Assembly (NCBI GenBank): GCA_018899555.1
Contig: JAHIHZ010000023.1
Coordinates: 1 to 44,980, forward strand
DNA: 44,980 bases
Direction: 5' to 3'
From: Patescibacteria group bacterium
Lineage (GTDB): Bacteria; Patescibacteriota; Minisyncoccia; Phycocordibacterales; 21-14-all-36-13
The translations under genes were made by a program, and so were the position numbers. Under the pieces are notes generated by a model. The model did no database searches and had not been told where the DNA came from. It worked only from the letters and a program-made list of their open reading frames with translations. Below, in pieces: positions 7,001 through 44,980 of the stretch (positions within the stretch are counted from its first letter, which is position 1; each line of letters begins with the position of its first letter).

Positions 7001-7120
7001 TTCTCTTTGTTGTACCGTTCGTACGAACCGCCCACTAGAAAAGTGAAGCAGTTCACTTTTTATTTTTTTTTATTTTCTCTCTATTCTCTTTGTTGTACCG
7101 TTCGTACGAACCGCCCACTA
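7001..7120. repeat. Perfect 37-bp direct repeat (7001-7037 and 7084-7120)
   Basis: ttctctttgttgtaccgttcgtacgaaccgcccacta occurs twice, 83 bp apart. It contains the 12-bp palindrome gttcgtacgaac. Confidence 0.9.
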
Positions 7121-7374
7121 AAAAATAAATAAATTTACTTTTTCTTAACGCTTTCTTTTTAAAAACTTTGTTTTTAAAAAACCCGGGGTTTTAAATTACT
7201 TCGCAATATATAAAACCCTCACAAAGCTAAAAAAGTAAATAAATTTACTTTTTCTTAACGCTTTCTTTTTAAAAACTTTGTTTTTAAAAAACCCGGGGTT
7301 TTAAATTACTTCGCAATATATAAAACCCTCACAAAGCTAAAAAAGTAAATAAATTTACTTTTTCTTAACGCTTT
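7119..7374. repeat. 110-bp tandem repeat, about 2.3 copies, abutting the 3' end of tRNA-Glu
   Basis: The unit aaaaaagtaaataaatttactttttcttaacgctttctttttaaaaactttgtttttaaaaaacccggggttttaaattacttcgcaatatataaaaccctcacaaagct starts at about 7119 and 7229, with a partial copy at 7339-7374. Each unit carries the hairpin aaaaagtaaa/tttacttttt. Confidence 0.9.
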
Positions 7375-7375
7375 G

Positions 7376-7447
7376 TGACCCCACAGAGAATTGAACTCTG
7401 ATTTCCGCCTTGAGAAGGCGATGTCCTAACCGTTAGACGATAGGGCC
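7376..7447 (-). tRNA. tRNA-Glu (anticodon CUC), no encoded CCA
   Basis: The minus strand reads GGCCCTA TC GTCT AACGGTT AGGAC A TCGCC TTCTCAA GGCGG AAAT CAGAG TTCAATT CTCTG TGGGGTC A. This is a full cloverleaf with GG in the D-loop and a TTCAA T-loop. Its architecture closely parallels E. coli tRNA-Glu. Confidence 0.85.
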
Positions 7448-8618: not shown

Positions 8619-9173
8619 ATGTTAGCAGAAGATAAACAAAAAATAATAAATATATCAAAGTTAATTTTAAAAAGTCTTTTTTCTATCTCTGTTAGTATTG
8701 CATTAATCTCTCTACCCAAGTTGGCACAGGTCATAAAATTATTTGAAACTGATAAAAAATACCGAAATAAATTTAATCGTGAAATTTATAGATTAAAAAA
8801 ATATGGTTATATAAAAACATACAAAAAAGGTGGAGAGATAGTCATAGATATAACCAAAAAGGGAATAAAATTAGTTAAAAAATATAATCTTGAAGATTTA
8901 GAATTAAAAAAAGAACCTAGATGGGACAAAAACTGGAGAATGGTTTTATTTGATATTCCAGAAAATAAAAAATCTGCAAGAGCATCTTTAAGAAGAAAAC
9001 TCGAACAACTCGGCTTTTTGAGGTATCAAAAATCTGTTTTTATATATCCATATTCTTGCAGGGATGAAATTAATTTTATATCAAACTATTTCGGTGTTGA
9101 GAATTTTATCAACTATATAATCGTTAAAAGAATAAATAATGACAAAAAGTTTAAAAAACATTTTGATTTATAA
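8619..9173 (+). CDS. Hypothetical protein with an N-terminal hydrophobic segment and a PaaX-C/Cas2-fold-like domain
   Basis: The motif WDKNWRMVLFDIPENKKSARASLRRKLEQLGFLRYQKSVFIYP matches the W.G.W..V.FDIPE..R......L...GF...Q.SV...P pattern of PaaX-like regulators. The assignment is by motif only. Confidence 0.45.
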   Translation: MLAEDKQKIINISKLILKSLFSISVSIALISLPKLAQVIKLFETDKKYRNKFNREIYRLKKYGYIKTYKKGGEIVIDITKKGIKLVKKYNLEDLELKKEPRWDKNWRMVLFDIPENKKSARASLRRKLEQLGFLRYQKSVFIYPYSCRDEINFISNYFGVENFINYIIVKRINNDKKFKKHFDL

Positions 9174-23302: not shown

Positions 23303-23486
23303 ACAAAAAATTATATCACAAAAAAAACTCCCGCGGACCTTTCGGCTGGCGGGAGCGTTTATGTGATTAAATATACACTAATATAATAAAAAAACAAGAA
23401 ACTTATCAACTTCGATTTTCTGTCCATGTTTCTTGATAATTTTATTTTTAAAATAGGTTTATTTTTAGGCATGTTTTAGAAAAAGC

Positions 23487-24489: not shown

Positions 24490-24595
24490 AAAATCTGACA
24501 CTACTCTTGAAAACCTCTCCCAGAGGTTTCCAAGTAGGGATGAAAACCTGACACTACTCTTGAAAACCTCTCCCAGAGGTTTCCAAGTATGGATG
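24490..24595. repeat. 2 x 53-bp tandem repeat containing the cttgaaaacctctcccagaggtttccaag hairpin
   Basis: aaaa(t/c)ctgacactactcttgaaaacctctcccagaggtttccaagta(g/t)ggatg occurs twice. A related copy lies at 21310-21352. Confidence 0.9.
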
Positions 24596-24618
24596 AAAAA
24601 TGTCCCTGGGGACATTTT

Positions 24619-25843: not shown

Positions 25844-25960
25844 GTAAAATGACAATGTAAAATGTTAAAATTACTAAACAAATTTTATGAAAGAAAATTT
25901 GCATTTAATTGATTGTTCGCCTGCCTCCGCAGGCAGGCCTTCGGCGAACTCCACAACTTT
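25844..25960. repeat. Left copy of the about 100-bp inverted repeat flanking ftsW (AAAATGACAATGTAAAAT family)
   Basis: gtaaaatgacaatgtaaaatgttaaaat (25844-25871) is the exact reverse complement of 27309-27336. The similarity continues through gaaagaaaatttgcatttaatt and the gccttcggc hairpin. Confidence 0.85.
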
Positions 25961-33290: not shown

Positions 33291-33488
33291 CCAAACCACA
33301 AATCCCAAATTACAAATAATATCTAAATTCTAATTTCTAATTTCTAATGCTTCAAACTTTTTTGAATTCCTGCCTGCCTGCCGGCAGGCAGGCAGGTTGT
33401 ATTTTGATAATTTGAATTTGTCCCATACCATTCGCTTCGCGAAGCTACGGGATAAATTTGTGATTTGGTGCTTGTAATTTGTGATTTC
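33291..33488. repeat. CACAAAT/ATTTGTG-family palindromic spacer with a central perfect 28-bp GC palindrome
   Basis: The left arm is ccaaaccacaaatcccaaattacaaata... The centre is cctgcctgcctgccggcaggcaggcagg (33369-33396). The right arm is aaatttgtgatttggtgcttgtaatttgtgatttc (33454-33488). Confidence 0.85.
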
Positions 33489-37625: not shown

Positions 37626-37744
37626 TATTTATGGATTCAAAACGGGGGATTAAAAAGCCCATTAGGAGGTTAAGAAAAAAGACATTATGAATTGAAAACC
37701 TCATTTAGAGCTTAGGAAAAAGACATTATGGATTGAAAACCTCA

Positions 37745-39367
37745 TTAAGAGGTTTTCAATTCCACATAAAACTCTGCGCCTTTGCCTTCCCCGTCTGATT
37801 CCGCCCACACCCTGCCTCCATGCGCCTCCATAAATTTTTTAACTATATATAATCCAAGTCCCGTTCCTTTCACATTAACTTTATTTGCGTTGCCAGCTCT
37901 TTTAAATAATGTAAATAATCCGGATAATTCTTTTTTGGGTATTCCAACCCCGCTATCGGAAAGTTTAAATAGTATTTTATTTTCATTTACCCTTTTTAGC
38001 TCCAACTTGAGCCAGCCATATTTTGTATATTTTAGTCCGTTGTCTATTAGGTTTGTTATTACTTGTTTAAATTTGCCCACATCAACTTTTGCGTTGTATT
38101 CTGCCGATTTATCATAATTGAAAGAAAATTCTAAACACGACTCATCTATTGACGGTTTCATTTCGTTTATAACATGAAACACAAGTTCATCTATCTTTGC
38201 TATTTCAAATTTATACTCCATTCTTCCCTGCTCTATCCGCGACACATCTAAAAAATTCTCAACTATCAACGCAAGGCTGTTTGTAGAATCAAACATATTC
38301 TTGATTGGTTGCTTTATTTTCTCCTCCATTTTTCCATAAGAGCCCTCTATTATTAATGAGGCGTATCCTTTTATAGCGGAAAGCGGACTTCTAAATTGGT
38401 GGGAAGCTATAGACAAAAACTCCGACTTTTGCCTATCCAACTCTTTCAATTTTACATTTGCGTCTTCCAATTTTACATTTGTATTCTCTAAATCCTTTGC
38501 AAGTATTTCTATTTTTTCTCTTGTTTCAACCTCCTTTATAACGCTTCTTATTAACAGAATTCCTGCAACTATAACAACCAACAATATAATTCCATTTATG
38601 ATTTGGTCTTCAAGACTTGTAGCCAATATTGTTCTTAAAAGAATAAATATCCAGAGAGCAAATGTTAATATTTCCGTTGCAATAACTTTTACATTGAATA
38701 AGTGATGTTTTATTATTGCGTACCCTAGTGATACAACTAAAATTAAAGTGAAAGGTGGTCCTAACCAGATTAAACTATAGTCTTTCCAAGGCAGAAATAA
38801 ATTGAATACCATTCCTAAAACATAAGAAATCGTTGTGCCAAAAAATATAAACTTGAATTGAAGTTTTGCTAATTTCTCACCAGCTTTTTTATAAGAATTG
38901 ATTAAATTATAGTAGGCCAAAAAAACAAAAAATAGGAAATATGCTACATACCCCAAATACATCTCCTTATTTAAAATTACTCCTTTTGTTCCGTCTTCAA
39001 AAAAGAAAATTTCTTTTAAAAGAAGATTTTTATCAAATAAAAAAGCCCCGATTATTACAATCATTGGAATTAATGATATTAGGATTTTTTTTGAAAATTC
39101 CTTACTCGAATTGAAGTATATGGTAAATAAAAAAAATAGCGTTGGAATTATGGCGGCAGATATATAATAAATGTCCGCATATATTAGTGCATCACCTAAA
39201 TCTTTTGTAGATATAAAAAATCCTAAAAAAAGAGCCCAAGAGGCAACAGATAATATTATCAACGAAAACAAAACATTTGTTTTTGTTTTGCCTCTCCCCA
39301 AAATAAAATAACTAAAAAAAGCATTTAAAACAGCAATTATAAATAACAAAACAATTTGATAATTCAT
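37745..39367 (-). CDS. Sensor histidine kinase with a multi-TM N-terminal domain
   Basis: The N-terminal half has several TM helices (about 6-7). The H-box is SHQFRSPLSAIKGY. The N (DNGLKYT), G1 (SDSGVGI) and G2 (GTGLGLYI) boxes are present. Confidence 0.9.
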   Translation of the reverse strand: MNYQIVLLFIIAVLNAFFSYFILGRGKTKTNVLFSLIILSVASWALFLGFFISTKDLGDALIYADIYYISAAIIPTLFFLFTIYFNSSKEFSKKILISLIPMIVIIGAFLFDKNLLLKEIFFFEDGTKGVILNKEMYLGYVAYFLFFVFLAYYNLINSYKKAGEKLAKLQFKFIFFGTTISYVLGMVFNLFLPWKDYSLIWLGPPFTLILVVSLGYAIIKHHLFNVKVIATEILTFALWIFILLRTILATSLEDQIINGIILLVVIVAGILLIRSVIKEVETREKIEILAKDLENTNVKLEDANVKLKELDRQKSEFLSIASHQFRSPLSAIKGYASLIIEGSYGKMEEKIKQPIKNMFDSTNSLALIVENFLDVSRIEQGRMEYKFEIAKIDELVFHVINEMKPSIDESCLEFSFNYDKSAEYNAKVDVGKFKQVITNLIDNGLKYTKYGWLKLELKRVNENKILFKLSDSGVGIPKKELSGLFTLFKRAGNANKVNVKGTGLGLYIVKKFMEAHGGRVWAESDGEGKGAEFYVELKTS

Positions 39368-41776: not shown

Positions 41777-42043
41777 ATGATTCCAGAATTTGTGCGCCCT
41801 TTTTTATGGTCTTATGATATATCTAAGATGAATTTAAAGAGAGACAAAAAAAGAATTATTACTAACATTTTGAATTTTGGAACAACCAAAGCAACAGATT
41901 GGCTTTTTAGTATTTATGACAAAAATGATATAAAGGAAAATGTAAAAAACCCAATGCCGGGCGAGTGGAGTGAAAAATCTCTAAATTTTTGGAGTATTGT
42001 TCTTAATGTGGAGTCGAAGATTGAAGGAAGAAAAATAAAATGA
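41777..42043 (+). CDS. Small protein upstream of the AbiEii-like gene (putative antitoxin partner)
   Basis: The 88-aa ORF has an ATGA overlap with the downstream nucleotidyltransferase ORF. FLWSYDISKMNLKRDKKRIITNILNFGTTKATDWLFSIY is present. The role is inferred from position only. Confidence 0.4.
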   Translation: MIPEFVRPFLWSYDISKMNLKRDKKRIITNILNFGTTKATDWLFSIYDKNDIKENVKNPMPGEWSEKSLNFWSIVLNVESKIEGRKIK

Positions 42044-42672
42044 TTATGTTTTATAATATATTGGACAAAAAAAGGGCTGATATACTTCCTTTTTTTAAAC
42101 AATTTAAAGAAAAATTTTATTTAGCGGGCGGAACCGCGCTGGCTTTGCAAATTGGACACAGAGATAGTGTTGATTTTGATTTTTTTTCAAACGAAAAATT
42201 TAATACACAGAAATTATTTGAAGAAATGAGAGATGTTTTTTTAGGACACAAAGTGTTCAAGATCCAAGAGGAAAGAAATACACTTTCTATTTTGGTTGAT
42301 GAAAATATAAAGATAAGTTTTTTCTATTATCCATACCAACTCATTGATAATCTAATAGAAGAAGAAAATTTTAAATTGGCTTCTCTGGTGGATATTGGAT
42401 GCATGAAGCTCTCGGCTATAACAGGAAGGGCAAGTATAAAAGATTATATTGATTTATATTATATACTTCAAGATATTAAATTGGAGGGCTTAATAGAAAA
42501 ATGTTTGGGGAAGTTTCCAAACATAGATAAAAATTTAATTCTCAAGAGCTTGGTATACTTTGAAGATGTAATAGATGAAAAAATAATTTTCAAAAACGAT
42601 AATTATATAGAACAAAAAGATATTGAGATTTTTTTGAAAAAAAAGATAAAAAATATTCTAATTAATAAATAA
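42040..42672 (+). CDS. Nucleotidyltransferase AbiEii/AbiGii toxin family (DUF1814-like) protein
   Basis: FYLAGGTALALQIGHRDSVDFDFF matches the GGTAL.L..G.HR.S.D.DF signature. The product is 210 aa. Confidence 0.7.
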   Translation: MIMFYNILDKKRADILPFFKQFKEKFYLAGGTALALQIGHRDSVDFDFFSNEKFNTQKLFEEMRDVFLGHKVFKIQEERNTLSILVDENIKISFFYYPYQLIDNLIEEENFKLASLVDIGCMKLSAITGRASIKDYIDLYYILQDIKLEGLIEKCLGKFPNIDKNLILKSLVYFEDVIDEKIIFKNDNYIEQKDIEIFLKKKIKNILINK

Positions 42673-42963: not shown

Positions 42964-43173
42964 TTGAATTACTCCTTTTTTTTATTTATTTAAACAACTT
43001 TTCAATTATAATAGTACCACAAAACTAATTTAAAGTAAACAAAAAATTAAACCACTTTCTAATTTCCTCCCGAGGCGGATAGGCGCGCAAAATGGATTCA
43101 AATGCTCATTCAGAGCATTTGAATTTAGTGATTTGGTGATTTTACTTGTTCCGTAGTGAGCTTTGCTCTACTA

Positions 43174-43863
43174 CTAGGATGTCTCTTTATATAGTTCTTT
43201 TATCTCATCCATTATCTTATTCGCGCCGAATTTATAATCATTTATTGTGATTTCTTTTTTATCTCCCAAAATTTTTTTTGGATATATTGGTTTACCTATA
43301 TTCAATACAACTTTTCTTTTTCGCGAAAAAAAACTTCCCCAAGATATTTTATAAGTACTATTTATTCCAATTGGCACTACAGGTAAATTAGTTTTATGCG
43401 CGAGAAACGCCACCCCTCCTTTTGCTTCCTGAAAGTTTCCATCTTTTGTTGTTCTTCCTTCTGGGAAAATAAATAAACTATGTTTATCATTCAAAATGTT
43501 TATGTGGTCTTTTAAAGATTCTTCATAATTATGTATCCCTATTCCAACTGCGTACGAACCCCACGCCTTAAAAAACAAACCTAATGAAAAAAATATCTGC
43601 ATCCACTTTCTTTCATAAAAAGTATTTTCGCGAGATGTATAAAACATCGGTATAAATTTTGACAAAAAAGGTAAACTTGCAGGCAAAAGTATTGGGTCAA
43701 GAGCGTTTGCGTGATTTGATGCAAAAATAACTCCCCTTTCCAGTCCTTTTAAGTTTCCAGTTCCGCGAACTTTAAGACCAATAAAAAAAATTAAAATTAA
43801 TCTGACAGGTATCCAAAATAATGTTTGTAAAAGTAATGGAGGTATAAAATAAAGCTTTTTCAT
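43174..43863 (-). CDS. plsC: 1-acyl-sn-glycerol-3-phosphate acyltransferase (LPLAT family)
   Basis: SNHANALDP is the HX4D motif, and FPEGRTTKDG is present. Confidence 0.88.
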   Translation of the reverse strand: MKKLYFIPPLLLQTLFWIPVRLILIFFIGLKVRGTGNLKGLERGVIFASNHANALDPILLPASLPFLSKFIPMFYTSRENTFYERKWMQIFFSLGLFFKAWGSYAVGIGIHNYEESLKDHINILNDKHSLFIFPEGRTTKDGNFQEAKGGVAFLAHKTNLPVVPIGINSTYKISWGSFFSRKRKVVLNIGKPIYPKKILGDKKEITINDYKFGANKIMDEIKELYKETS

Positions 43864-43940
43864 ATAATTTCCCTAATTATACCACTAATTTCTCAAAAAT
43901 TATCCAGTTGTCCAATCGTCCAACCATGCAACCATTTAAT

Positions 43941-44205
43941 TTTACCCCGCCCGCCTACCGCAAACAGGTAGCCCAGCCCCGGGCTGGTGATACTGGGGTG
44001 AATAAGAGAATGGAAAACCGGACATTTTCCTATACAACCATTCAATTGAATAAGAGAATGGAAAACCGGACATTTTCCTATACAACCATTCAATTGAATA
44101 AGAGAATGGAATTTTGTAAAAGACTATCCTCCTATTCGCTACAATTAGAGAATGGATAAAAAAAAACAAAACTATCCCCTTATTCGCTACAATTAGAGAA
44201 TAGAA
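43941..44205. repeat. Composite repeat module 1: 56-nt GC-rich three-stem element (43944-43999) plus a 48-bp-period tandem array (2.3 A-type and 2 B-type units)
   Basis: The GC-rich element is ACCCC..CTACC gcaaaca GGTAG..CCAGCC ccg GGCTGG..GGGGT. The A-unit gaataagagaatggaaaaccggacattttcctatacaaccattcaatt starts at 44000 and 44048, with 44096 partial. The B-unit actatcc.c.tattcgctacaattagagaat.ga starts at 44123 and 44171. Confidence 0.9.
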
Positions 44206-44299
44206 AATTAGTTGTTTTGAAATTGTTTTGAGAATGAGTTTTTGGTAAAAAATTTAATCACTCGGGAGTTTCGCTTTCAAAAAGATTTAAAAAACGCCC

Positions 44300-44629
44300 T
44301 TATTCAAGGGCGCTCCAAATTTTGGTTTTGATGGTCTTGGCGTCATCTCCTGTTTTGACGACAATTGCCGGAACATTGGGAAATTTTTTCCAATGGTTCA
44401 GAACGCTGGTCTGAGAACTTTTTACCTGTAAGGGTATCTTTTCACCACTTATTTTGATGACGAAAAAATCAATCCCCTGAAATTTGTCTGCATGGCGACC
44501 AGTTTTGTAAAAACTTACAATTTCACCATCTCTTGCCATTTCATCAAGAGCTATACCAACCGCTACTTCGGCCCCTCGACCTCGCTGACGCTCAATTTTT
44601 TTAATGAGATTGACAACGGTTCTGCTCAT
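44300..44629 (-). CDS. 109-aa stand-alone Hjc/Mrr-like PD-(D/E)xK mini-nuclease (putative)
   Basis: The promoter is TTGAAA-17-TATAAT (44694-44666), with an AGGAGG RBS and a terminator cgccctt gaat aagggcg + T-run. RGRGAEVAVGIALDEMARDGEIVSF...QGIDFFVIKISGEKIPLQVKSS follows the G..E...L...G / D / (E/Q)VKS pattern of Holliday-junction-resolvase-like nucleases. The gene is GC-richer than its surroundings. Confidence 0.5.
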   Translation of the reverse strand: MSRTVVNLIKKIERQRGRGAEVAVGIALDEMARDGEIVSFYKTGRHADKFQGIDFFVIKISGEKIPLQVKSSQTSVLNHWKKFPNVPAIVVKTGDDAKTIKTKIWSALE

Positions 44630-44791
44630 CTATATCACCTCCTTTAATTACTGTATCTATATTGCATTATACCCCACCCTTAATTATTTTTCAACATTAT
44701 CCAAATAAGGAATTTTTGTCTACTTGAGTTTTTGTGTAAGCTATACGGTATCGCTTTCAAAACGAACATTAATCTTAGTTTGTCCATCCTC

Positions 44792-44980
44792 TTTACCCCG
44801 CCCGCCTACCGCAAACAGGTAGCCCAGCCCCAGGCTGGTGATACTGGGGTGAATAAGAGAATGGAAAACCGGACATTTTCCTATACAACCATTCAATTGA
44901 ATAAGAGAATGGAAAACCGGACATTTTCCTATACAACCATTCAATTGAATAAGAGAATGGAAAACCGGACATTTTCCTAT
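44792..44980. repeat. Composite repeat module 2 (truncated by the window end): same GC-rich element plus at least 2.7 A-type 48-bp units
   Basis: It is identical to 43941-44110 at an offset of 851 bp, apart from one substitution (g to a at 44832) that falls in the 3-nt loop of the CCAGCC/GGCTGG hairpin. The third unit remains A-type here, whereas it diverges in module 1. Confidence 0.9.

Follow-up and report, generated by a model that had tools for sequence, protein, structure and literature searches.

A variable gene slot between dnaJ and an acyltransferase gene in Patescibacteria, with a small nuclease-like gene flanked by composite hairpin repeats

We analyzed a 44,980-nt stretch of an AT-rich Patescibacteria chromosome (the window), near the right end of which a small gene lies between two copies of a complex repeat. 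We found that the gene occupies a hypervariable accessory-gene hotspot, in which the same flanking core genes enclose different cargo, or none, in related strains. Although real, the locus is not a new RNA-protein system but a variable island of a fairly ordinary kind. On balance, we favor the view that the island holds a cassette bracketed by terminator-like hairpin repeats that serve as substrates for recombination and slippage. An earlier note on this DNA, made without genomic context, had not recognized the combination of repeats and gene as any described system; the hotspot between dnaJ and the acyltransferase gene explains most of that picture.

The repeat is a composite module that consists of a 56-nt GC-rich three-stem element, identical 48-bp A units and two diverged B units. 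It is present twice, in direct orientation with a spacing of 851 bp, around a self-contained gene for a 109-aa protein (Table 1). As the earlier note had described, the two modules share a direct repeat, which is 171 nt long and 99% identical (43941-44111 and 44792-44962). Tandem arrays of 48 bp were found by TRF at 43999-44111 (2.4 copies) and at 44850-44980 (2.7 copies up to the window end, where the array is cut), with 100% matches in each. Module 1 has 2.3 A units followed by two B units, and module 2 has at least 2.7 A units, in line with the original count. For the sequence beyond module 2 in the window strain we relied on two related contigs, L002 and L022; in the independent contig L002 there are 3.3 A units and then a B unit again.

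In each A unit, a 15-nt spacer separates an X arm (GAATAAGAGAATGG) from a second, diverged one in inverted orientation. The palindrome reported at the unit junctions is present, but it is 12 bp long (ATTCAATTGAAT) and not 10 bp. The A units are 100% identical throughout, including the 15-nt segment between the palindromes, and the absence of unique spacers upholds the view that this is not a CRISPR array. A 28-nt core is confined to the two arrays within the window (chance expectation there, 0.00). The B units of module 1 (44120-44159 and 44168-44207) are degenerate copies of a perfect palindrome in L022, with 81-92% similarity. To the left of module 1, the half-core ATGCAACCATTTAATT aligns with ACAACAATTCAATT at the same position in two relatives (L019 and L010), and it is the final sequence common to the other alleles before the variable region starts. 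The forward-strand frame through the module stays open because 48 bp is 16 codons; it is probably not coding, because it has no RBS and its substitutions are mostly non-synonymous. No tRNA or tmRNA remnant that could be an att site was found at the locus with ARAGORN.

Table 1. Positions of the features of the dnaJ-acyltransferase spacer within the window
Feature	Position	Strand	Details
PlsC-type lysophospholipid acyltransferase gene	43174..43863	-	Pfam PF01553, E 9e-13; conserved left flank of spacer
Left half-core ATGCAACCATTTAATT	43926..43941	+	88% to A-unit half-core
GC element, copy 1	43944..43999	+	Outer stem ACCCCG/TGGGGT around two hairpins
A array, module 1	44000..44112	+	2.3 identical 48-bp units
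B units, module 1	44113..44207	+	Two diverged units, 46-48 bp period
10-bp word TGAGTTTTTG, left copy	44235..44244	+	2 nt outside the block shared with L008
Intrinsic terminator of 109-aa gene	44289..44314	-	Hairpin CGCCCTT/AAGGGCG and U-run, z -2.8
109-aa gene, PD-(D/E)xK-type fold (E21...D54...Q68xK70)	44300..44629	-	ORF and AF2 model
RBS and promoter of 109-aa gene	44638..44694	-	AGGAGG 44638-44643; TTGAAA-17-TATAAT 44666-44694
10-bp word TGAGTTTTTG, right copy	44725..44734	+	Repeat search
GC element, copy 2	44795..44850	+	Differs from copy 1 by a G-to-A change in a loop
A array, module 2	44851..44980	+	2.7 units visible before window end

Misassembly of the duplication or of the unit counts, which the earlier note had raised against its own reading, is hardly credible. 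The window does stop inside an array, and related contigs break at the repeats. However, the module-gene-module architecture is repeated in independent assemblies from three other samples, and the duplication is therefore not an artefact. The ENA contig L001 carries the acyltransferase gene, a module, the gene and a second module on one contig, with a SNP between its two copies, and the same architecture was found independently in L002 and in the JGI contigs L020 and L022. These four assemblies agree even though they come from different samples and pipelines. In addition, the two module copies carry SNP differences and have different flanks, and the array of module 1 (113 nt) is below the k-mer length of the assembly (141).

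The locus is the dnaJ-acyltransferase spacer of a Paceibacteria-like chromosome, with dnaJ lying beyond the window end. Homologues of the acyltransferase are named lysophospholipid acyltransferase in Patescibacteria/Paceibacterota, and relatives keep the gene order rpoA-rplQ-rplM-rpsI-grpE-dnaK-dnaJ-[variable]-acyltransferase. In this variable interval we distinguished seven allele types. The spacer is as short as 26 bp in L018 and 128 bp in L011. It contains a type I restriction-modification (R-M) system (N6_Mtase and Methylase_S, with or without Bro-N) in L015 and L017, and a toxin-antitoxin (TA) pair (HTH-Panacea and a 124-aa gene) in L019 and L010. In L022 it holds a 266-aa gene, a LexA-S24-D12 (Dam) methylase, a 134-aa gene, the module and a single copy of the 109-aa gene; module 2 of this contig (GC element and two B units) diverges from module 1 right after the second B unit. 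L004, which has the 109-aa gene, and L019, which has the TA pair, come from the same groundwater sample, where the two alleles occur side by side. The identity between the two acyltransferase genes is 98.1%, and the contigs also have their first 55 nt, which lie within dnaJ, in common; between the last ~16 codons of dnaJ and the ATG of the acyltransferase gene, the alleles differ. Neither the 30 large ORFs of the window nor the related contigs encode a recombinase domain, which speaks neither for nor decisively against a site-specific route. An allele that has one module but lacks the gene, as predicted for an excision product or a pre-insertion site, was not found either, and this counts against the reading that we favor.

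Palindromic building blocks also border the R-M and TA cargo in alleles that do not have the 109-aa gene. The boundary palindrome of L015 is AACAACCATTCaatcGAATGGTTGTT. L017 has two palindromes and an inverted B unit, L021 has a predicted 20-pair hairpin around a perfect palindrome with 14-bp arms (z -7.3), and the perfect palindrome of L022 has 20-bp arms (z -7.0). Only the half-core is found at the boundary in L019 and L010. The palindromes of L015, L017 and L021 sit just upstream of the cargo promoters.

The number of A units is 0.3, 2.3 or 3.3 across strains or copies, and in L001, L020 and L022 the A array is absent (0.3 unit). Comparison of the window with L001 revealed a single SNP in the gene block (44205-44790) and about 16% divergence in part of the acyltransferase gene. 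Both module copies share strain-specific changes in this comparison (AA/GG, two G/A, and 0.3 versus 2.3-3.3 units). Judging from these shared changes, the two flanking copies evolve in concert. In the lineage of L004, the two flanking cores are 97% alike while the gene is 11% diverged from that of the window, which suggests selection or ongoing conversion.

The GC-rich element folds as an outer stem around two hairpins (-26.3 kcal/mol; z -1.8 and -2.5), and both this fold and the single loop-base difference between the copies are as previously described. A comparison with Rfam, one of the checks the earlier note had proposed, gave nothing relevant at gathering or permissive thresholds: only a tRNA-Glu elsewhere in the window was found, and the best scores in 43850-44980 were miRNA-type noise far below threshold. 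The suggestion that the element is a structured RNA finds no backing in compensatory covariation, in a small set of closely related sequences. In these six variants, all 17 pairs remain paired, with no compensatory change and one A-U to G-U change. The other five of the six variable positions are unpaired, and the stems are otherwise invariant. These invariant stems, with nearly all changes at unpaired positions, hint at a constraint on structure, at the RNA level, for which the hotspot model has no explanation.

The GC element is known only from this locus. The 45-kb window contains no further copy of the core or of the element, viral contigs (IMG/VR) contain neither, and ~150 kb of related loci, taken from outside the hotspot, have no repeat copies. 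In JGI metagenomes, the pattern of the element matched one contig, from this same locus. The only match in GTDB species representatives falls inside a Verrucomicrobia coding region and was rejected as chance. Other GC hairpins occur in intergenic regions of the window, and hairpins with ACCCCG..TAC(T)GGGGT termini are present in relatives. The termini of the element (ACCCCG...TACTGGGGT) resemble those of simpler GC hairpins downstream of dnaJ and elsewhere in relatives; by local alignment there is no homology between the element and the dnaJ-side hairpins, and the likeness is restricted to the termini. A classical terminator role is not evident because no U-run follows the element on either strand. 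Probably the element does not serve the nuclease as a partner RNA but is a stable RNA or DNA hairpin that blocks transcription.

The AF2 model of the 109-aa protein (pLDDT 84.6, pTM 0.74) has an alpha-beta-beta-beta-alpha-beta core; an earlier model, made from six sequences, was too weak. The order of DSSP elements is helix 2-33, strand 39-42, helix 45-51, strands 55-58 and 64-70, helix 73-82, strand 88-90 and helix 97-108. The top Foldseek matches were AvaII (prob 0.90), YaeQ, NucS, PA endonuclease, VRR_NUC, BstEII, ACE1/Cas4 and SfsA. All matches had E values of 0.037 or more, none of them significant, and the top ones are PD-(D/E)xK nucleases. Pfam matches of the query were below threshold (RE_MjaI, E 0.074; DUF4365, E 0.15). 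A few members of its family, which comprises about 480 clusters of ~110-aa proteins at 50% identity, reach E ~1e-5 for RE_MjaI, DUF4365 and NERD, and members also match Mrr_cat_2 weakly. There was no match to the protein in NCBIfam and no meaningful match in a PDB sequence search with profiles. Residues E21, D54, Q68 and K70 are near-invariant in 60 family members. Q68 stands where an acidic residue is usual, giving a QxK rather than a (D/E)xK motif; PD-(D/E)xK variants with Q are known.

The protein thus resembles the PD-(D/E)xK superfamily (RE_MjaI, DUF4365, NERD and Mrr_cat_2 profiles; AvaII, NucS and VRR_NUC structures) in its core fold and its E...D...QxK residues, and its weak profile and fold matches all fall within that superfamily. 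It differs in that no match reaches a curated threshold or Foldseek significance, in the Q at the acidic position, and in being a bare core domain. Of the earlier Hjc/Mrr-like PD-(D/E)xK assignment, the PD-(D/E)xK type is supported by the modeled core and the E...D...QxK residues. The Hjc part is not supported, as the matches in Pfam, PDB sequences and Foldseek include no Hjc family or structure. Overall, a generic PD-(D/E)xK fold that is not specifically Hjc has moderate support. Because of this fold and the alternation of the gene with R-M and TA cargo, we consider a small, dimeric DNA nuclease with a defence or selfish role the most likely identity of the protein.

The gene forms a self-contained cassette of ~590 bp with its own promoter, RBS and terminator, as had been proposed. 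The promoter is of the sigma-70 type with 11 of 12 matches, and the terminator overlaps the stop codon and was missed by a simple terminator scan. Short words were correctly reported on both sides of the gene: one is the 10-bp word TGAGTTTTTG, and an 18-nt word containing TCGCTTTCAAAA likewise occurs on each side. The 10-bp word is only at chance level, however, because the same 1.2 kb contains three 10-bp exact repeats. We rejected it as a target-site duplication: its position is suggestive, but it has chance frequency and is absent in L004.

The gene is also found at other loci (L008 and L009). That it is self-contained and occurs elsewhere fits the idea that the repeats are the ends of a mobile cassette, but the modules are absent at those loci, where the core was not found either. 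The homologues also speak against a conserved linkage of gene and module. The 85%-identical homologue, of the L004 lineage, has a single 34-bp core per side and no GC element, and homologues with 86% and 61% identity have no module. At the unrelated locus in L008, a B-like motif (TATCCGCTTATTCGCT) and GC-rich hairpins are on the same side of the gene (0/200 shuffles), and some repeat material may therefore travel with the gene. A 16-bp direct repeat around the gene in L008 is not a reliable target-site duplication, because its shorter core TTCTTGCCCC recurs by another GC-hairpin region of that contig. No relatives of the protein were found in IMG/VR, plasmids or phages.

In the explanation that we favor, the composite repeat is made of degenerate copies of one imperfect, locus-specific palindrome with arms CTATTCTCTTATTC and GAATAAGAGAATAG, and the GC element is a hairpin cluster inserted at the palindrome centre. 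The palindrome lies at the cargo boundaries in all hotspot alleles; its perfect form has an A-tract/hairpin/T-tract layout and would be an element of the terminator or insulator type. We infer a route in which strains would exchange whole cargo alleles by homologous recombination, the breakpoints falling within dnaJ and the acyltransferase gene, and in which the hairpin units in the spacer would recombine and would slip during replication. One crossover, or an unequal exchange, within a boundary palindrome could then place the gene between direct repeats, which are single 34-bp cores in the lineage of L004 and whole modules of 180-310 bp in that of the window. The 48-bp units would subsequently amplify and contract (0.3, 2.3 or 3.3 copies), and gene conversion would keep the two flanking copies alike.

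The protein might instead drive these changes itself. A selfish nuclease that recognizes and cuts the core (centre CAATTG) or a cruciform, and so promotes its own insertion, duplication or maintenance by a homing-like process or as a recombinase-free analogue of attC exchange, would account for full cores on both sides of the gene in two lineages whose genes are 11% diverged. It would also fit the presence of the gene at other loci, so that it moves, the B-like motif alongside it in L008, and modules that change in concert and faster than the gene. Small dimeric PD-(D/E)xK enzymes typically read palindromes, as is known from type II restriction enzymes. We nevertheless consider a selfish nuclease unlikely. 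Cores and palindromes are found at the hotspot in gene-less alleles too, L008 and L009 have no core, and homing normally leaves split half-sites, not full duplicated ones. The motif is QxK, with no catalytic acidic residue at the usual (D/E) position, and there are no viral or plasmid relatives. A bolder version is improbable: that the repeats and the protein form an undescribed, integrase-free cassette-mobility system of Patescibacteria, in which the nuclease would cut palindromic or cruciform boundaries (centre CAATTG), repair would duplicate, amplify or move cassettes, and the GC-rich three-way junction would travel with the cassette as a structural cofactor or barrier. Also rather improbable is a regulatory or insulator array, in which palindromes and GC hairpins, as operators or transcription barriers, would control whether transcription of dnaJ and the cargo runs on into the acyltransferase gene, with tandem amplification tuning this control. 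Module 1 is directly upstream of the acyltransferase promoter, the palindromes of three relatives have the position by cargo promoters given above, and the perfect palindromes look like bidirectional terminators. Yet a 26-bp spacer suffices in relatives, the copy number differs between near-identical strains, and there is no linked regulator gene.

Schemes that borrow the machinery of known elements fit less well. An integrated mini-replicon or excisable circle of 851/899 bp, with the 48-bp units as iterons, origin-like GC hairpins and one small protein, integrated via a resident module copy, is very unlikely. The 1026-bp contig L002 has a 127-nt terminal overlap that would make an 899-bp loop, and module-gene-module is the product of Campbell-type integration, but a direct repeat of more than 141 bp is expected to give just such a loop in a de Bruijn graph. 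Moreover, at least three strains have the locus at one and the same chromosomal position, the protein is not of a known initiator type, and the L004 lineage has the gene without iterons or GC element. We give still less credence to an integron-like cassette array (CALIN) with attC-type hairpins used in trans by an integron integrase. Imperfect palindromes at cassette boundaries, small self-contained cassettes as cargo, and ATACAAC...GTTGTAT in the palindrome of L021, reminiscent of R''/R', are set against the lack of an integrase in 45 kb or in any related contig, cargo genes in mixed orientation with their own promoters, and window units without a GTT-type R' partner. Arm length and spacing (4, 6 or 12 nt) also differ from one palindrome to another, attC sites are longer than these palindromes, and the breakpoints of allele replacement are in dnaJ and the acyltransferase gene. 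On the strand of the gene, module 2 presents identical tandem repeats, then GC hairpins, then the gene, a layout superficially like ToxI-terminator-toxN. A type III TA-like system, in which tandem RNA repeats and a hairpin would lie upstream of a small nuclease toxin that processes the repeat RNA and is neutralized by it, is exceedingly unlikely all the same. A near-consensus promoter lies between hairpin and gene, an identical protein is found in strains with 0.3 A units, the 85-86% homologues have no tandem repeats, the fold is PD-(D/E)xK and not ToxN-like, and neither PADLOC nor Pfam gave a match to type III toxins.

If the hotspot explanation is right, the locus is a compact and well-resolved case of ultra-small CPR genomes keeping a slot for swappable defence or selfish genes, with hairpin repeats at its borders that generate copy-number variation and concerted evolution. 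It also flags the uncharacterized ~110-aa PD-(D/E)xK family as a candidate single-gene defence or selfish module. No long-standing question is opened at present, and a surprise would come only from the less favored idea that the palindromes are a target of the nuclease.

Several known repeat families share features with this locus. Like attC sites and Acinetobacter pdif sites, its imperfect palindromes can form hairpins and bound small exchangeable modules, TA systems included. In contrast to those systems, it has no IntI or linked Xer gene and no conserved R''/R' or 11-6-11 architecture, the arm spacing is variable, and the cargo has its own promoters and mixed orientation. An attC site requires R'' (RYYYAAC) pairing with R' (GTTRRRY) in an imperfect hairpin of 57-141 nt; on manual inspection, the window units have ATACAAC and no GTT partner, and related perfect palindromes have directly abutting arms and 4-6-nt loops. 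REP and BIME sequences are likewise imperfect intergenic palindromes of ~35 nt that occur in clusters, and some are transcription barriers and recombination substrates. However, REPs are genome-wide families linked to RAYT transposases, whereas the palindromes here are limited to one spacer and no RAYT is present. BOX elements of Streptococcus consist of boxA, a variable number of tandem boxB units and boxC, with predicted stem-loops (PMC3049150). The module resembles them as a modular intergenic repeat with a structured head, tandem units of ~45-48 bp that vary by strain, and a different tail module. BOX elements are dispersed and MITE-like, with more than 100 copies per genome and terminal inverted repeats, whereas the module is known at one locus, in two direct copies without terminal inverted repeats. 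Of the properties of MITE, REP and BOX families, variable tandem units were thus seen and genome-wide dispersion was not (45-kb window, ~150 kb of related loci, JGI metagenomes).

The closest likeness is to hotspots and variable defence islands. Groundwater Patescibacteria are reported to carry genomic islands with R-M systems (PMC12455944). As in such islands, the place between two conserved housekeeping genes is fixed, sister strains have R-M, TA, a small nuclease or nothing, and no integrase is required, with breakpoints in the flanking genes. The locus differs from known hotspots in its very small scale (26 bp to about 4 kb), and in that a long composite direct repeat, specific to this locus and evolving in concert, encloses one of the cargoes.

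We lean slightly towards reading the locus at the window end as a hotspot cassette that lies between copies of a composite hairpin repeat specific to this locus. In close relatives (acyltransferase 82-86% identical), the order rpoA-rplQ-rplM-rpsI-grpE-dnaK-dnaJ-variable spacer-acyltransferase is conserved. Among related loci from other assemblies (L numbers), the spacer is 26 bp in L018 and 128 bp in L011, where it holds a GC hairpin and a duplicated dnaJ 3' end. Elsewhere it carries HsdM/HsdS-type genes with or without Bro-N (L015, L017), HTH-Panacea and a 124-aa gene (L019, L010), or the 109-aa gene (L004-L007). In L022 it contains, in order, a 266-aa gene, a LexA-S24-Dam methylase fusion, a 134-aa membrane protein, a perfect palindrome, module 2 and the 109-aa gene. 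Because this spacer is variable, the window ends inside a small accessory-gene hotspot. Homologues of the acyltransferase carry names from Paceibacterota and Campbellbacteria. The window is ordinary Patescibacteria chromosome (~28% GC) with aminoacyl-tRNA synthetases, dnaB, mraZ/mraW, ftsW, murG, scpAB and the AbiEii/DUF6922 pair.

L004 and L019, from one groundwater sample, have acyltransferase genes that are 98.1% identical. Their contigs begin alike, with 55 shared nt inside dnaJ; the sequences then differ, starting ~16 codons before the end of dnaJ and continuing as far as the acyltransferase start. Here one allele has replaced another, with the breakpoints lying within the genes on either side, and for this reason the spacer-allele contigs all break at one base.

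Several features of the spacer and its surroundings were also recorded (see table). Every allele has, shortly after the end of dnaJ, several copies of the short words (A/G)TCTGCG and TCCGCG, which often surround a long hairpin of AT-rich sequence (CACCCTGTTAAATAATT...). The last ~12 dnaJ codons are duplicated in L011 and L015 (KELLDKLKEEGI plus stop, beside the functional ...ELKNEGI plus stop), with a GC hairpin separating the two ends; the arrangement resembles a scar left by an insertion that brought along a replacement 3' end. The fusion in L022 is unusual; its neighbour within the hotspot is the 266-aa gene, which has no annotation. The DUF6922/AbiEii pair is 1.2 kb from the locus, so another defence-type module lies close to the hotspot.

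Positions of features in the window and in related loci
Sequence	Position	Strand	Feature
Window	7118-7374		110-bp tandem repeat, 2.3 copies, 99% matches; internal 15-bp duplication and CCCGGGG motif; abuts tRNA-Glu
Window	7375-7447	-	tRNA-Glu, only tRNA gene in window
Window	8619-9173	+	184-aa protein, PaaX central / Cas2-like domain (PF20803 E 2e-21; CRISPR_Cas2 E 8e-5); no CRISPR array or other cas gene in window
Window	23326-23360, 25914-25954, 33364-33401		GC-rich hairpins, perfect or nearly so, between genes in AT-rich DNA, e.g. CCTGCCTGCCTGCCGGCAGGCAGGCAGG
Window	24490-24599		intergenic tandem repeat, 53-bp period, 2.1 copies, 96% matches, GAAAACCTCTCCCAGAGGTTTCC hairpin
Window	37647-37751		intergenic tandem repeat, 41-bp period, 2.5 copies, 82% matches; just upstream of histidine-kinase gene
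Window	41777-42672	+	DUF6922 and AbiEii nucleotidyltransferase pair (type IV TA / Abi-like)
Window	43104-43109		site of 54-bp insertion with hairpin AAACCTCATTTAAGAGGTTT in L001/L020, within intergenic hairpin downstream of acyltransferase gene
Window	43174-43863	-	PlsC-type acyltransferase gene
Window	~43220		GAATAAGATAATGG (ANKIMDE), 3' region of acyltransferase gene
L001; L010; L015	1601; 6688; 6642		GAATAAGATAATGG resemblance in relatives
Window	43372-43810		central acyltransferase gene, ~16% divergent from L001
Window	43908-44159, 44700-44980	+	open frame through modules 1 and 2
Window	43941-44111, 44792-44962		171-nt direct repeat
Window	43944-43999, 44795-44850		56-nt GC element
Window	43999-44111		48-bp array, 2.4 copies
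Window	44850-44980		48-bp array, 2.7 copies, cut by window end
Window	44205-44790		gene block, one SNP relative to L001
Window	44300-44629	-	109-aa gene
L011; L015	5880-5990; 1850-1960		duplicated dnaJ end
L004; L017; L021; L022	100-150; 1-60; 5130-5230; 1360-1450		TCTGCG/TCCGCG words
L022	2292-3830	-	512-aa fusion: LexA DNA-binding domain, S24 peptidase, D12-class N6-adenine DNA methyltransferase

The earlier note described a duplicated module around a small gene, and this description held. The direct repeat has 99% identity and its copies are 851 bp apart, TRF recovered the 48-bp arrays with 100% matches, and two diverged (B) units follow module 1. The palindrome at the unit junction is indeed perfect; its length is 12 bp (ATTCAATTGAAT), not the 10 bp first given. 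In each regular (A) unit, an arm (GAATAAGAGAATGG) is followed after 15 nt by its diverged inverted counterpart, which ends in ACAACCATTCAATT; the GC element of the window lineage occupies the core centre, between atgcaaccatttaatt and gaataagagaatgg. The perfect palindrome of L022 (20-bp arms, AAAATCTATTCTCTTATTCG tg CGAATAAGAGAATAGATTTT, z -7.0) is an A-tract/hairpin/T-tract element of terminator type, to which B units are 81-92% similar. The 28-nt core (chance expectation 0.00) was found in the arrays only. Short words said to flank the gene are present, and 10-bp repeats occur at chance frequency in the AT-rich DNA here. The repeats are locus-specific: neither the rest of the window nor ~150 kb of related loci beyond the spacer has another copy. 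The acyltransferase coding sequence GAATAAGATAATGG matches the repeat arm at 13/14 positions in all relatives, a likeness that is probably coincidence. A plus-strand reading frame crosses the GC element and each A or B unit without a stop, in all strains and copies (repeat peptide NKRMENRTFSYTTIQL), because 48 bp is 16 codons. It is probably non-coding, since it has no RBS and its substitutions are mostly non-synonymous.

The number of A units was 0.3 in L001, L020 and L022, 2.3 in module 1 of the window and 3.3 in module 2 as completed by L002, where a B unit follows again. Strain-specific changes between the window and L001 are identical in both module copies. Together with the single SNP in the gene block and the divergent tract in the adjacent acyltransferase gene, this sequence pattern indicates mosaic recombination, and the two flanking modules evolve in concert. 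In the L004 lineage, the gene has one 34-bp core per side (cores 97% identical), and no GC element lies beside it.

The GC element folds as first drawn (-26.3 kcal/mol), with moderate z-scores (-1.8 and -2.5). All 17 of 17 pairs of the three-stem fold are kept in six variants, which show one A-U to G-U change and five other variable positions, all unpaired. Compensatory changes numbered zero among these closely related variants, too few for covariation. Such variation would fit a constraint on structure, which might act on plus-strand RNA. Variants of the L001 type have a different hairpin (GCCTGC/GCAGGC) that competes with stem 2 and resembles the window hairpins at 25914 and 33364; the motif of the intergenic hairpins is GCCTGCC..GGCAGGC. 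Less elaborate GC hairpins sharing its termini, ACCCCG(T/G)AG...CTAC(T)GGGGT, are present in relatives, where they follow dnaJ and occur three times in L008; local alignment gives no extended homology to the element. Pattern searches matched this locus only in JGI metagenomes, one chance coding sequence in GTDB representatives and nothing in viral contigs. The element has no Rfam match, and on neither strand does a U-run follow it. In our view the element is a lineage-typical GC hairpin cluster lodged in a palindrome, and it may act as a barrier or stability element.

The 109-aa gene has the signals attributed to it: a promoter matching at 11/12 positions, an AGGAGG site and a hairpin and U-run terminator. 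Only six close homologues of the protein were found among 5.8 billion proteins. A profile search recovered ~479 family representatives of ~110-150 aa, with G17, E21, D54, Q68, K70 and S72 near-invariant. Pfam matches of the query (RE_MjaI, DUF4365) were sub-threshold, although some family members reached E ~1e-5 to RE_MjaI, DUF4365 or NERD; PADLOC gave weak REase_II and PDC-S01 matches, and NCBIfam none. The AF2 model (alignment of 60 sequences; pLDDT 84.6) has the predicted order H2-33, E39-42, H45-51, E55-58, E64-70, H73-82, E88-90, H97-108, which fits an alpha-beta-beta-beta-alpha-beta core. The top Foldseek matches, none significant, were all PD-(D/E)xK nucleases: AvaII (prob 0.90, E 0.037), YaeQ, NucS, PA endonuclease, VRR_NUC, BstEII, ACE1 and SfsA. 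The profile, AF2 and Foldseek results give moderate support to the PD-(D/E)xK fold proposed earlier, and none to the Hjc specificity.

One rival reading is a selfish nuclease acting on the palindromes. Gene and modules are not consistently linked: homologues sit at unrelated loci that lack modules, in L008 (86% identical, adjoining a 48-aa membrane peptide) and L009 (61% identical, adjoining a cold-shock gene). Related palindromes also stand at cargo borders of alleles without the gene, in L015 (AACAACCATTCaatcGAATGGTTGTT), L021 (perfect, 14-bp arms, z -7.3), L017 (two palindromes and an inverted B unit) and L019/L010 (a half-core exactly at the end of the shared acyltransferase-proximal flank). 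We consider nuclease-driven cassette mobility at hairpin sites quite improbable. The main loose end is in L008, where a B-like motif (TATCCGCTTATTCGCT) and GC-rich hairpins lie on the promoter side of the gene (0/200 shuffles). Another rival is a regulatory or insulator array.

The remaining rivals are an integrated mini-replicon, an integron-like CALIN, a type III TA-like system and an assembly artefact. The locus fails the attC/integron test, and no recombinase is present in the window. It also fails the test for type III TA and, separately, that for Rfam families. The 127-nt overlap of the L002 termini is the graph loop that a direct repeat >k = 141 would give. L001 carries acyltransferase, module, gene and module on a single contig with a SNP between the copies, and L002 and the JGI contigs L020 and L022 have the same architecture from other samples. 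The duplicated structure is not an assembly artefact.

For a hotspot cassette bracketed by the composite repeat, whole alleles would be exchanged by homologous recombination within the two flanking genes, dnaJ and that for the acyltransferase, as shown for L004/L019. A crossover at a boundary palindrome could give the direct duplication around the gene, and slippage or unequal exchange could make the number of 48-bp units grow and shrink. Gene conversion would make the two module copies alike, as the window/L001 differences and the core comparison suggest.

The locus is mostly explained and adds a further example to known kinds; two items stand out, a small nuclease family that is uncharacterised and a GC-rich hairpin cluster that is unexplained. 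It fails the CRISPR test, in agreement with the earlier note. The closest architecture to the module is that of streptococcal BOX elements, with a head, n tandem ~48-bp units and a tail (PMC3049150); the module fails on the dispersal that defines BOX elements. Genomic islands with R-M systems are on record in groundwater Patescibacteria (PMC12455944), and the behaviour of this locus is like that of defence islands and hotspots flanked by core genes in other bacteria.
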